Shown: in pieces, positions 12,349-43,215 of the stretch
Layout of the letters: each line of letters opens with the position of its first letter
How positions within the stretch are numbered: position 1 is the stretch's first letter
Virus record (IMG/VR): IMGVR_UViG_3300001505_000001
Length of the DNA stretch: 64,000 nt
Reading direction: 5' to 3' (one strand)
From: a virus
Translations under genes and position numbers: made by a program
Notes under the pieces: model-generated
What the model was told of the DNA's origin: nothing
What the model saw: the letters and a program-made list of their open reading frames with translations, nothing else
Database searches by the model: none

Positions 12349-12777
12349 ATGGATTTTAAACAAGTTTTTTTATATGATGGAACACCATATTTAGCATTTC
12401 GTGGCTCCGATGGGGAATATGATTATCCTAATGACGAGTGGACAGAAACTCCACCACCAGAAGGATTATATGAGCCTATATATTTTAATGGGAATGAGTG
12501 GAAAGGTGCAAGTAAAGAAGAATGGGAAAAGTCTATACAAAAGAAGAAGGAAGAAGAGTTATCTAAACTTCCACCGTATGAACCAACACCTATAGAACGT
12601 TTAGCTGCAACGTCACAGTTACAAACTGCTAAAACAGCAAGAAGACTACAGACATTAGAACAGACACAAGCAAAAAGTTTAGTCAACGATGCCGAAAAAG
12701 ACAGAAAGATAAAAGTTTTAGAAGAGCAAGTGGCTAAATTGATGCTTGAATTAACTAAAAAAGGAAGTGTTGAATAA
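12349..12777 (+). CDS. Hypothetical structural or assembly protein
   Basis: ATG at 12349 with RBS AAGGAGG; the track ORF 12268 start lies inside the upstream gene. 142 aa, coiled-coil C-terminus. Confidence 0.35.
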   Translation: MDFKQVFLYDGTPYLAFRGSDGEYDYPNDEWTETPPPEGLYEPIYFNGNEWKGASKEEWEKSIQKKKEEELSKLPPYEPTPIERLAATSQLQTAKTARRLQTLEQTQAKSLVNDAEKDRKIKVLEEQVAKLMLELTKKGSVE

Positions 12778-39663: not shown

Positions 39664-40170
39664 CTATAAAAAATCTTCATCTATTTCATCTGTAATTTTC
39701 TTATATGTTCTTTTGCTCTTAATGTTCCAAATTGTCTGATTAGATATATTATACTCTTTAGATATTTCTGATACTCCTCGTTCATCTAAATATATATCTA
39801 TAACATCTAACCTTTCTACTCTTTTATATTTGTTATCTTTATTTTCTAAGTATGATGTTATATTGTTATAATGTATACCTTTTTTAATACGCCATACAGT
39901 TGTTCTATTTACATTATATTTCTTAGCAATATTGTTAACAGATTCATTACATTTAAAAATATTAATAACAGTTTGTTTAGGTATCTTTGGCTCATAGTTG
40001 TATTTATTTCTAATAGGTTTTTTTAGACCTCCTGTTACTTTTATATGTGATTTTCTATTCATTATATCACTAATATGTGAAATAGACACATTATATTGTT
40101 TTGCTAACTCTTTTTGTGTTTTAGTGCTTATATATATTTGTTTAACTTCTTCTTGTGTTAGTTTATTCAT
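39664..40170 (-). CDS. DNA-binding protein with three tandem helix-turn-helix modules
   Basis: Three repeats of about 50 aa, each K.E.AK.YNVS/NR.TI..I; basic; sigma-70 region-4 / resolvase-HTH-like. Confidence 0.45.
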   Translation of the reverse strand: MNKLTQEEVKQIYISTKTQKELAKQYNVSISHISDIMNRKSHIKVTGGLKKPIRNKYNYEPKIPKQTVINIFKCNESVNNIAKKYNVNRTTVWRIKKGIHYNNITSYLENKDNKYKRVERLDVIDIYLDERGVSEISKEYNISNQTIWNIKSKRTYKKITDEIDEDFL

Positions 40171-40242: not shown

Positions 40243-40998
40243 TTATTTCCAATTAAAATTATCTGCAAACTGTGCTATTTTACTTCTAAAGTTAGTTGTA
40301 AAGTGGTGGTATGCTGCACCTTGATAGTCTTCTGATTTAAAATAATTTACATAAGGCTCAAATCCCGATTTACTATTTTGTTTTAAATCAATCTGTCTAT
40401 AGTTACCTTCAACAATACATTTAGAATTAGAATGTAATCTTGTTAAAACTTTCTTTAACTCAGAACGTTTGAAATTCTGCGCTTCATTTATAACTACTGT
40501 AACGTTTTTTAAATTTCCACCACGTAAAAATAAATGAGATATTTGAGACACCCAGCAATCTAACAATTTATTTTCTTCATGGTTTTCATCCATTAACAAC
40601 ATTTCCGTTATGACTTGCTCTGGAACCATATTTAATTCTGTAATAGCATCGTGCAATCCCATAAAATATGCCATTTCTTTTTCTGTTTGATTTCCTGGTC
40701 TGCTACCTAAATCTTCTGAAACTGGTGCAATAATAAACACTAATTTCTTACCTTTGTTTAGCCAATCTGCATAAGCACATGCAACACTACACATGGTCTT
40801 CCCTGTACCTGCTGGACTTTCGTTAAACAAAATCTCTATATCATCATTAAAAAAGTCTTCACAAAATTGTAATTGTTCTTGTGTAGCCTTATTTAAAAAA
40901 TCATCAAATACTGTATGTTCTAGCATGTTGTATTGTACTAACGGAAAATTTTGTAATTTATATTTTAACTCTTTATCCATTTTTGCCAAAGTTATCAT
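40243..40998 (-). CDS. phoH: PhoH-like ATPase
   Basis: Walker A SPAGTGKT and Walker B/DE region VVINEAQN, typical of PhoH family proteins common in phages. Confidence 0.6.
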   Translation of the reverse strand: MITLAKMDKELKYKLQNFPLVQYNMLEHTVFDDFLNKATQEQLQFCEDFFNDDIEILFNESPAGTGKTMCSVACAYADWLNKGKKLVFIIAPVSEDLGSRPGNQTEKEMAYFMGLHDAITELNMVPEQVITEMLLMDENHEENKLLDCWVSQISHLFLRGGNLKNVTVVINEAQNFKRSELKKVLTRLHSNSKCIVEGNYRQIDLKQNSKSGFEPYVNYFKSEDYQGAAYHHFTTNFRSKIAQFADNFNWK

Positions 40999-41529
40999 CC
41001 TTTATATATGTTCTCATAATAGTATACATTGAGAGCAATAGCATCTGCTACGTCATCAAGTAACTTACCTCTTTCTGTGTATATTTCTGGCATATCACTT
41101 GAAAAATAAGCCTTTAAAAATTCTGCTACTATTTCTTTTTTATTGAATTGTTTTAACTCTTCTTTTGTATAAAAACATTTATTAATTAAATACTTTTTAC
41201 AATATGCTTTTAATGTCGCATTATGAATATCTATAGCTTCACTGTTATTATTATATAAGTAATATTCAAGTATCGCATGTGAATATAGTACATTTTGCGC
41301 TGTTGCAGAACGTCCAACAAATGGCTCTTCTTTACATATAACATTTGGATTATAATTGTCTATTTTTGATATTATATCTGATATATGTCTATCTATGCGT
41401 TCTATTGTATCTTTTTTCTTGTCTGAAACCATTAATTCACACAATAAAACATTGATTTTACTAGAACTGTATTCAGCGACACAAATGCCTGTCTTAGCGA
41501 AATGAATAGTCTAAACTTACAACAATCAT
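40995..41529 (-). CDS. RuvC-like Holliday junction resolvase with an N-terminal +1 frameshift
   Basis: Strong RBS GGAGGAG followed by ATG at 41529 gives MIVVSLDYSF then a stop. The +1 frame continues (F)AKTGICVAEY... to a RuvC-like C-terminus LDDVADAIALNVYY. The track ORF (40995..41444) starts at an internal TTG and lacks the first catalytic Asp. Confidence 0.5.
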
Positions 41530-41568
41530 GGTAGACTTCTCCTCCCTGTCTATAATTTTCCAAAACTT

Positions 41569-41802
41569 TTATTTATAAAACACATCATATCCTACAATAA
41601 ATTTAGGAACTATTATTGAATACCCCTCTTCATTTCTATGTGGTATCTTAATAAGGTTATGTCTATTTTCCAAACCTTTTTCTATTTTGTCCAATACTTC
41701 TTTTAAAGGCGTACTAGTAAATTCATTAGTAATACATAGTATTCCACCATCTTTAAAATTTGCACAATCTGTTATTACAATTATTGCTTTTATCTTATCC
41801 AT
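41569..41802 (-). CDS. Hypothetical protein
   Basis: 77 aa. Confidence 0.35.
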   Translation of the reverse strand: MDKIKAIIVITDCANFKDGGILCITNEFTSTPLKEVLDKIEKGLENRHNLIKIPHRNEEGYSIIVPKFIVGYDVFYK

Positions 41803-42059: not shown

Positions 42060-42085
42060 TGTTATTTCTCCTTTTTAAAAATTTA

Positions 42086-42103
42086 AAGGGGAAATATCCC
42101 CTT
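42086..42103 (-). terminator. Terminator hairpin aagggga-aata-tcccctt after the AAA+ gene
   Basis: 7-bp GC-rich stem; a T-rich tract follows on the minus strand. Confidence 0.45.
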
Positions 42104-42105
42104 GT

Positions 42106-43215
42106 TTAAACTTTAATCGCATATTCATCTTGTTCTGCAATTGGCTCCATAATAATATATTCAATCTTTACGTCGTTGTTTATTGTTTCCCAATCAGAAA
42201 TTAAATCTTTTTTCAACTGGATTTCTGATAATCTATGTTCTGGATTTCTAATAATCAATCCATTATTCAATTCTTCTAATTTTGTATAATCTAATTCTAA
42301 AGAATCTACTTCTAAATCATAAAATTCTTTCCCAATCTTATCTGGTTTGGCACTAAAAGTAGCGTCAAAGACTTCTTTTTCATCAAGCAAGTTTAAGTAT
42401 ACTTTATCAGTATATACCTTATCATCTCCTTTAGCCTTAGCTGTTAAGGTATATGATTGTCCTTCATCAGTGTTTATAATGTTTAAGTCTTGTAGAGCAT
42501 TTTTTAGAGCTGTGCCTGTATTTAACTCAAAAGCAATCGCTCTCAAATAATCATAGTTTAATTTCATGCGTTTTGATAATAGCACAGCCTTATCAATTTG
42601 TTCTTTATATTTACTATCAACCTTATCTTCTAAATATTCTCTAACTTCTTGAGGGCTTGGATATGAAAAACGAAAATGATAATGGAATCTTCCTGGTCTG
42701 TTAACCATAAATTCACTAAGTTTGTTAACATGATTAATTGTAATTGCATATAATTTTTTCTTAGTTGAATAACCGTCAAATAAACTTAATAATTTATCTT
42801 GTTCACTAAACACCTTCTCAAACTCATCAAATAATACTAAACATTCTTGGTCAATACTATCTAAGAAATATGACAAGTTTGGAGTTTCTTTATTTACAAT
42901 TAAAACAGGATAACCTTCTTTAAGCGCCCTTTGTGATAATAGTTTAGTGAATAATGATTTTCCAATACCTTTATCTCCAGACAAGATAATTCCCATAGAG
43001 CGCTCAAATAATTTATAAGAATCCATAATTTTGTCAAGTTTATCGGTATTTTTCCCATAAATTTTTTCAGTAATGTCAAAATTATCTACTTTAACTAATG
43101 AATAACCACTCATTGGGTCAAAATTTACTCTATAAGTTTGTAATGGTAATTCTTTATGAGTTTTAATTTCATCTGCAAAAATTTCAAATTGTTTTCCATG
43201 TTCAATAATATTCAT
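42106..43215 (-). CDS. AAA+ ATPase
   Basis: Walker A GDKGIGKS and Walker B LVLFDEFEK. Confidence 0.5.
   Translation of the reverse strand: MNIIEHGKQFEIFADEIKTHKELPLQTYRVNFDPMSGYSLVKVDNFDITEKIYGKNTDKLDKIMDSYKLFERSMGIILSGDKGIGKSLFTKLLSQRALKEGYPVLIVNKETPNLSYFLDSIDQECLVLFDEFEKVFSEQDKLLSLFDGYSTKKKLYAITINHVNKLSEFMVNRPGRFHYHFRFSYPSPQEVREYLEDKVDSKYKEQIDKAVLLSKRMKLNYDYLRAIAFELNTGTALKNALQDLNIINTDEGQSYTLTAKAKGDDKVYTDKVYLNLLDEKEVFDATFSAKPDKIGKEFYDLEVDSLELDYTKLEELNNGLIIRNPEHRLSEIQLKKDLISDWETINNDVKIEYIIMEPIAEQDEYAIKV

Follow-up and report, generated by a model that had tools for sequence, protein, structure and literature searches.

The influenza A virus PA-X site, UCC_UUU_CGU, directs a low-level +1 ribosomal frameshift with no stimulators (Atkins et al. 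2016, PMC5009743), and this shift, measured at about 1–2% efficiency (PMC5052127), is low-level yet biologically meaningful (PMC5009743). UUU_CGN is also the +1 motif of amalgaviruses, where CGN is 'a rare Arg codon', and re-pairing of tRNA-Phe from UUU to UUC at UUU_C is supported by the same source (PMC5052127). In bacteria, UUU_Ynn forms a +1 shift-prone class (PMC5009743). Here, we examine a gene for a RuvC-like Holliday-junction resolvase on the minus strand of a 64,000-nucleotide (nt) stretch of viral DNA (IMG/VR record IMGVR_UViG_3300001505_000001; the whole stretch is called the window), in which the start of the protein and its body lie in two reading frames that meet at UCA_UUU_CGC. 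Comparison of sequences makes it likely that low-efficiency +1 ribosomal frameshifting, in which tRNA-Phe would move from UUU to UUC, is needed for an active resolvase.

The junction shares with the PA-X and amalgavirus sites the form UCN_UUU_CGY, the predicted UUU-to-UUC step of tRNA-Phe, a rare CGN codon in the 0-frame A site and the lack of an RNA stimulator. In those eukaryotic RNA viruses, the N-terminal protein is functional by itself and gains a second C-terminal domain through the shift, whereas here the host is bacterial, the shift would take place at codon 10 and be obligatory for function, and the unshifted product would be an 11-mer. The bacterial UUU_Ynn sites of the Yersinia YopN-TyeA fusion and of FseA, an activator of a rhizobial integrative and conjugative element (PMC5009743), likewise place UUU and a pyrimidine before bacterial ribosomes and, as here, do not need an adjacent stop codon. 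They differ in that a single enzyme would here be restored near its 5' end, in a phage DNA-metabolism gene, by a site conserved in part of the gene family. The G-run of herpes simplex virus thymidine kinase (PMC5009743) likewise combines a one-base indel, function through low-level frameshifting and a useless unshifted product; however, it is a recent, drug-selected homopolymer mutation, whereas the indel here has been conserved through saturating synonymous divergence, at a UUU_C site and outside any run.

The prfB site, CUU_UGA_C, resembles this locus in its layout, with a short first open reading frame (ORF; 25 codons in prfB, 11–12 here) followed by an obligatory +1 shift into the main one. 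Such an architecture is typical of regulatory shifts. However, prfB shifts on a stop codon and needs a Shine-Dalgarno (SD)-like stimulator 3 nt upstream; here, there is no such SD, the stop lies one codon further on in one lineage, and no feedback logic is evident. Among Gram-positive siphophages, +1 frameshifts are known in the capsid and tail genes of Listeria phage PSA. Both these and the 'shifty stop' CCC.UAG of the lactococcal 936-group mtp/TpeX (PMC6105707) are +1 recoding in Gram-positive siphophages, as is proposed here, but they act on a stop codon at the 3' end of a structural gene and yield an extended second product, whereas the site described here lies at the 5' end of a nuclease gene and would be obligatory. 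Full-text literature searches returned no description of a frameshift in the Sextaecvirus, SEP9 or 6ec resolvase. The PRFect paper (PMC10885494) names 'RusA/RuvC' in a list of genes 'known to contain a frameshift', with Sharples & Lloyd 1991 as the reference, and may refer to an earlier RuvC frameshift. The mechanism class is known; what is new is that a phage RuvC gene would employ it at codon 10, with conservation across exchangeable 5' modules.

A RuvC-like resolvase gene in two reading frames

The gene is made up as follows.

41539–41546, minus strand: Shine-Dalgarno sequence GGGAGGAG, read directly, 9 nt upstream of the ATG
41494–41529, minus strand: ORF1 in frame 0, with start ATG 41529–41527, product MIVVSLDYSFR and stop TAA 41496–41494
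41497–41505, minus strand: proposed +1 shift site UCA_UUU_CGC, with the 'extra' C at 41499
40995–41498, minus strand: ORF2 in frame +1, body of the RuvC-like resolvase, 167 codons and stop TGA 40997–40995
40995–41444, minus strand: truncated ORF as reported by the ORF caller, 149 amino acids (aa), start TTG 41444

ORF1 reads ATG ATT GTT GTA AGT TTA GAC TAT TCA TTT CGC TAA (11 sense codons and a stop) and encodes strand beta-1 with the invariant catalytic Asp7 (GAC 41511–41509). ORF2 opens at GCT 41498 as AKTGICVAEY... and carries G14, E67, D159 and D162; its C-terminal end is given as LDDVADAIALNVYYYENIYKG, followed by the stop, and as DDVADAIALNVYYYENIYKG. When C 41499 is skipped, the two frames give a joined protein of 177 aa, MIVVSLDYSF-AKTG.... 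This anatomy bears out the original prediction, made from the letters of the window, on three points: an SD sequence and ATG 41529 open a frame reading MIVVSLDYSF that stops at its twelfth codon, a +1 shift near 41500 continues as AKTGICVAEY... to a RuvC-type C-terminus at 40995, and the ORF caller gives only the ORF with an internal TTG start, without the first catalytic Asp.

Sequence profiles place the joined protein among RuvC-like resolvases from its first residue. The family phrog_159, 'RuvC-like Holliday junction resolvase', matches residues 1–174 (E 1.2e-14), while phrog_34902, which holds 149-aa entries and appears to have been built from truncated annotations, covers only residues 31–177. 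The Pfam RuvC match stays below the gathering score (18.1 bits against a cutoff of 22.2; E 0.0026; residues 4–77), as does the Pox_A22 match below its threshold (E 0.012); a precomputed PF02075 match is attached to many homologues. A search of 5.8 billion proteins gave 118 homologue clusters, the majority being 175–190 aa long, encoded in a single frame and starting M(xx)IIMSLDYSFA(N/K)(S/T)G. About 100 in-frame homologues align with the joined protein end to end, from residue 1, and read ...SLDYSFA(K/N)(T/S)G..., which is exactly the predicted trans-frame product. In an alignment of 33 sequences D7, G14, E67, D159 and D162 are invariant, with D7 encoded in frame 0 and E67, D159 and D162 in frame +1.

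The family profile derived from this alignment matches Deinococcus radiodurans RuvC (7w8d) from residue 1, placing the D7 column on its 'GID' and DDvaDA on its 'nhaADA'. An AlphaFold2 model of the joined protein, computed from the alignment, has a predicted local distance difference test score (pLDDT) of 94 and a predicted template modelling score (pTM) of 0.90, and shows an RNase H-like beta-beta-beta-alpha-beta-alpha-beta-alpha core with strands at residues 2–7 (beta-1), 12–20, 25–34, 63–67 and 98–101. The core opens with strands 2–7, 12–20 and 25–34, which puts the frame junction in the loop between beta-1 and beta-2. The best Foldseek match in the PDB is the RuvC structure 4ld0 (E 8.6e-9; template modelling scores 0.69/0.77), followed by 7w8d, 1hjr, 6p7b and 4ktw; the top matches are RuvC of T. 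thermophilus, D. radiodurans and E. coli, and then poxvirus resolvases (fowlpox) and Lactococcus phage 67 RuvC. The catalytic acidic set is present: an Asp at the end of beta-1, a Glu on beta-4 and two Asp in the C-terminal helix. The RuvC-like identity that had been proposed is upheld by phrog_159, the family profile, the AlphaFold2/Foldseek result and the invariant D7, E67, D159 and D162, and the gene is predicted by sequence and model to encode a RuvC-family Holliday-junction resolvase.

Among the structural neighbours of the model are phage and poxvirus RuvC-family resolvases (Lactococcus phage bIL67 RuvC, PDB 4ktw; fowlpox and canarypox A22-type enzymes), which share with it the RNase H-like fold, the N-terminal beta-1 Asp and the C-terminal DDxxDA acidic pair. 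Their genes are in one frame, whereas the gene here is split; unlike them, the family described here has an insertion of about 30 residues, conserved as NATLKAYC...YTKEELKQF.

Conservation of the junction and of both frames

Positions 40900–41700 of the window match 26 Staphylococcus epidermidis siphophage genomes of the SEP9 group (genus Sextaecvirus) at a nucleotide identity of at least 99%; phages 6ec, CF1 and PMBT8 are more distant matches. Each of the 26 SEP9-type records aligns to the window in one piece of 801 nt that spans exactly 801 record bases, and a tblastn match of the joined protein to these records begins at residue 10. The junction was read directly in SEP9, CF9, S-CoN_Ph10, BE02 and a SEP9-type metagenome contig (L132). 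SEP9-type isolates come from Portugal, Switzerland, the UK and elsewhere, the SEP9-like phages that carry the extra C were sequenced independently in several laboratories, and the junction is also present in metagenome assemblies derived from SRA and ENA.

TTT-C-GC junctions occur in four diverged versions of the gene start: the SEP9-like version, that of PMBT8 and PT94, and two metagenomic groups. PMBT8 (a phage of S. hyicus), PT94 (a phage of S. chromogenes) and contig L019 read ATG ATT ATT GCG TCT TTG GAC TAC TCG TTT C GCT AAG ACA; contigs L015–18 read ...TCA TTT C GCT AAA ACA; and contigs L020–26, which we call group D, have a TTG start and read TCA TTT C GCA AAT AGT GGG. The 0-frame of group D is CGC AAA TAG, with the stop one codon further than in the other three lineages. 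Group D combines a weak, coupled start with the frameshift; its TTG, which lies about 15 nt before the CTA GAT motif, shares bases with the stop codon TGA of a 237-aa gene upstream (cTTGAtt). Between the four groups the gene bodies have 43–69% protein identity. All ten distinct frameshifted alleles give an intact ORF of 175–181 aa once the C is skipped, and an SD-like purine run stands at the matching place in every frameshifted allele.

The same lesion was found in every N-terminally truncated homologue cluster read as DNA (P0001, P0049, P0091, P0092, P0094, P0095, P0096, P0103 and P0110), the sole exception being the 6ec/CF1 type, which is in frame and has an ATA start; lesions were not scattered. 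At the junction spot, in-frame relatives read TTT GCT AAC (RQ1 and contig L030), TTT AGT AAG (PT1-1) or TAT GCT AAG (6ec). In phages 6ec and CF1 (contigs L002 and L003, position 1361–1363 in each), ATA, followed by ATT ATT, stands at the ATG-homologous codon behind a normal SD, and the resolvase is annotated as a 149-aa truncated ORF. This ATA either serves as a weak, non-canonical start or marks another type of 5' lesion in the same gene. A scan of IMG/VR with the pattern GAYTAYTCNTTTCGCTAAGACNGG gave no match; the looser pattern GAYTAYTCNTTTCGCNAANAS is too degenerate, and its 101 metagenome and 76 genome contig matches were all due to chance and lie in unrelated organisms, by tblastn of the loci, except L132.

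The sequence on either side of the C varies in the manner of two coding frames. In codons 5–10, every site that differs among the four groups is synonymous in frame 0 (AGT/TCT, TTA/TTG/CTA, GAC/GAT, TAT/TAC and TCA/TCG); after the C, the GCT/GCA, AAG/AAA and GGC/GGT/GGG differences leave the frame +1 residue unchanged, and K/N and T/S changes, which are conservative, also occur. TTT-C-GC itself is invariant in the four groups and preceded by TC(A/G), and the Phe codon is never TTC. Nei-Gojobori counts between the window and PMBT8 over codons 2–10 give 4 changes in 5.8 synonymous sites and 4 in 21.2 non-synonymous sites. In the body, the same method gives a ratio of non-synonymous to synonymous divergence (dN/dS) of 0.10–0.27 between frameshifted alleles, with saturated dS.

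The frame-broken alleles keep the short first frame as protein, together with its SD and start codon. This reads as a signature of recoding and not of a dead gene. Comparison with orthologues, which had been proposed as a check, favours a frameshift: in two-frame orthologues, frame 0 still has its SD, start codon and N-terminal SLD motif, and the downstream part has no conserved start of its own. Judged from these sequences, the arrangement at the junction is far beyond chance, because in-frame homologues match the joined protein over its whole length and identical junctions recur in independent genomes and diverged lineages.

The gene is also mosaic. PT94 (frameshifted) and PT1-1 (in frame) are 93–100% identical in DNA after about codon 15 and 77% identical in the first 15 codons; their bodies share 98% aa identity and their upstream genes differ. 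Contigs L025 (frameshifted) and L030 (in frame) resemble this pair less strongly, being 80% identical over the first 15 codons, 88–100% over the next four blocks and 68–88% after that. By these comparisons, the 5' module with the extra C behaves as an exchangeable cassette.

Proposed slippage at UUU_C and competing explanations

In the proposed mechanism, ribosomes would start at the strong SD and ATG 41529 and advance until UUU (Phe10, 41502–41500) occupies the P site and the rare Arg codon CGC the A site. In a fraction of ribosomes, the peptidyl-tRNA-Phe (anticodon GAA) would then slip by one base, from UUU to UUC (41501–41499). These ribosomes would resume at GCU (41498–41496), read GCU AAG ACA... 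and make the 177-aa enzyme, for which the predicted N-terminal tryptic peptide is MIVVSLDYSFAK. Without the slip, a ribosome would reach the stop two codons later and let go of a peptide of 11 residues. By established codon-anticodon rules, UUC is a perfect match for tRNA-Phe, whereas neither GCU nor GCA can pair with the tRNA-Arg that reads CGC.

A programmed +1 shift at UCA UUU C GCU was one of three causes offered in the original prediction, and it fits all of the comparative data as well as the published class of shift-prone motifs. The only element common to all frameshifted alleles is UC(A/G)_UUU_CGC, and a shift at UUU_C would give ...DYSFAK/N..., identical to the in-frame homologues. 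CGC is the second-rarest Arg codon in the ORFs of the window (12 of 16,729 codons, or 0.72 per 1000, compared with 394 AGA codons, or 23.6 per 1000, and 7.2 per 1000 for CGT). TTT_CGC occurs in frame within the window only at the resolvase site. No other UUU_CGN recoding site was found in the window, the resolvase alone having a short 0-frame, a long +1 ORF and an upstream SD with start codon. In a 2025 preprint in which 165 10-mers were measured, P-site UUU was among the most shift-prone codons and CGC among the least (bioRxiv 10.1101/2025.10.02.679949).

Candidate helpers of the shift were also considered. The only recurrent hairpin, AUAAAAU...AUUUUAU, is shared by the in-frame genes and was rejected as a stimulator, and the Rfam search gave no match. 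A phage-encoded suppressor tRNA was rejected as well: the window contains no tRNA gene, and the whole SEP9 genome has only tRNA-Pro(UGG) and none for Phe or Arg. With neither a phage tRNA nor a stimulator, the host machinery alone would therefore have to carry out the shift, and because no stimulator was seen, its efficiency is probably low, at a few per cent.

Several observations weigh against frameshifting as the explanation. Downstream RNA folding (67 nt; seven frameshifted and five in-frame alleles) was no better than that of shuffled sequences (z from −1.8 to +1.0), and no internal SD was found, the 12 nt before TTT (AGT TTA GAC TAT TCA and variants) being without a GGAGG-like run. The shift efficiency may be at the level of error, and the trans-frame protein itself is a prediction from sequence. 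TTT_CGT is tolerated in normal genes, so the motif alone would not be strongly disruptive; it occurs in frame inside ordinary long ORFs at 42675 and 36027 (minus strand) and at 12397 (plus strand), these ORFs being the AAA ATPase gene, one of about 1250 codons and one of 170 codons. Sister phages RQ1, L030 and F1 carry in-frame genes with a good SD and ATG. Moreover, because the gene is mosaic, purifying selection on its body cannot be credited to time spent in the frameshifted state; consequently, the argument for recoding rests on the 5' modules themselves.

The alternative that best survives these data, although we consider it unlikely, is that the frame-broken genes are null or decaying alleles of a resolvase made dispensable by another nuclease or by host RecU, the C being an inactivating mutation that hitch-hikes and spreads by recombination. 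In-frame and disrupted alleles do coexist within one genus, the ATA of 6ec and CF1, where others have ATG, could be another such lesion, recombining 5' modules could refresh the bodies and hide decay, and a frameshift stimulator was not found. However, the same single base is present at the same place in four 5' modules that have diverged to synonymous saturation, and these modules retain an SD, a start codon and the frame-0 peptide M-I-(I/V)-x-S-L-D-Y-S-F, which is not expected of a dead gene. No second lesion was seen in the ten distinct frameshifted alleles or in any truncated cluster examined, and the inserted base creates the known shift-prone tetranucleotide UUU_C.

A different site for the shift is a less probable reading. 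Ribosomes could slip one codon later, after CGC has been read as Arg and with UAA in the A site, in a prfB-like manner, to give ...DYSFRKTG... with Arg in place of Ala at position 11. UAA directly follows CGC in three of the four lineages, and Arg is natural at this position in some in-frame homologues (DYSFRKSG in P0057; DYSMRKTG in P0087 and P0088). Group D, with its 0-frame CGC AAA UAG, would have no stop in the A site at that step, and this, together with the low P-site score of CGC and the high score of UUU in the measured frameshift library (bioRxiv 10.1101/2025.10.02.679949), argues against a shift after CGC. So do the pairing constraints given above for tRNA-Arg and tRNA-Phe, and the lack of an SD-like stimulator 3 nt upstream, unlike prfB.

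It is very improbable that the functional product is instead a truncated protein started at TTG 41444 or ATG 41432, with the 11-codon ORF serving only as a leader peptide. The public records examined are annotated in this way (they start at ATG 41432, giving 145 aa, as in SEP9, CF9, S-CoN_Ph10 and BE02), and phrog_34902 is built from such 149-aa entries. However, no GGAGG-like run lies upstream of either start, and the position and codon of the internal start vary between lineages. By the secondary structure of the model, the product would be without beta-1, beta-2 and most of beta-3 of the RNase H-like fold and without the catalytic D7, and the codons that precede it are conserved as +1-frame protein (AKTGICV...), which is not required of an untranslated leader. 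We conclude that the 145–149-aa ORF is not plausible as a product.

An error of sequencing or assembly, or a phase-variable indel differing between virions, can practically be dismissed: the difference is a single base beside a run of T, but the 'ttt/aaa run' once suspected as a homopolymer is merely T3 followed by C, which leaves either idea, and transcriptional slippage, without a substrate, too short as it is for polymerase or DNA slippage, and the C is identical in 26 phage genomes, in metagenome assemblies and in three other diverged lineages, with no isolate having the in-frame length at the locus. A sequencing indel is thereby excluded and a phase-variable homopolymer not supported.

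Gene neighbourhood and biological meaning

On the minus strand, the gene order is an AAA ATPase gene, two small ORFs, the resolvase, a PhoH-like gene and a gene for a protein with three helix-turn-helix (HTH) repeats.

42106–43215, minus strand: AAA ATPase gene
40243–40998, minus strand: PhoH-like gene
39664–40170, minus strand: 168-aa protein with three similar HTH repeats (AKQYNVSISHISDI, AKKYNVNRTTVWRI and SKEYNISNQTIWNI)

The 168-aa repeat protein gives weak matches to many HTH families. A terminator-like hairpin, AAGGGGATATTTCCCCTT, with a T-rich tail (42085–42103, minus strand) separates the AAA ATPase gene from the small ORFs that precede the resolvase; three overlapping calls were made there against 0.2 expected from shuffles. 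Downstream, the ATG of the PhoH-like gene (40998–40996) overlaps the TGA of the resolvase (40997–40995) as ATGA, and a good SD is absent before this ATG. Coupling may let ribosomes that have shifted into the resolvase body go on to translate the PhoH-like gene; given the overlap, the shift may therefore also set PhoH-like translation.

A ribosomal-slippage join is found in none of the public records examined (SEP9-type, PMBT8 and PT94). The PMBT8 and PT94 records give an ORF from an out-of-frame TTG, MRLWTTRFAKTG..., and S-CoN_Ph10 annotates a 43-aa 'hypothetical protein' (a TTG ORF, MENYRQGGEVYHDCC...) in the third frame, across the 5' end of the resolvase (window 41432–41563, minus strand; contig L213, 238–369), which is almost certainly a gene-calling artefact of the frame break. 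If the frameshift is real, a ribosomal-slippage join belongs in the SEP9-type, PMBT8 and PT94 annotations.

Of all the steps in the argument, the biological rationale is the weakest. One possibility is that the arrangement keeps the amount of a junction-cutting nuclease small; another is that a shift-prone site rescues a tolerated, 'leaky' indel. In the first case, 6ec and CF1 would arrive at little resolvase by a different route, through their ATA start. That a toxic nuclease must be expressed weakly is not a general rule that we endorse, since the in-frame genes of sister phages have a good SD and ATG. A more specific reading, which by analogy with prfB and antizyme we offer only as a rather doubtful suggestion, is that UC(A/G)_UUU_CGC may act as a regulatory gate, the shifted fraction being set by the speed of CGC decoding, for instance through charged tRNA-Arg, polyamines or a phage-altered translation apparatus. 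In that case, the timing or dose of the resolvase would follow the physiological state of the infected cell, and the PhoH-like gene may be gated likewise. Phages that swap the exchangeable 5' module by recombination would be passing on a portable 'expression dimmer', and this would be the first use by a bacterial virus of an influenza PA-X-type motif as an obligatory switch.

If true, frameshifting at this site would be a rare case of an obligatory +1 shift in a non-structural gene of a bacteriophage, with the UCN_UUU_CGN motif working on bacterial ribosomes. It would provide a compact, stimulator-free natural cassette for the study of +1 slippage in Staphylococcus, for which the in-frame alleles of sister phages would be built-in controls. 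These phages are in development as therapy against S. epidermidis, and which nucleases they actually make is therefore relevant.

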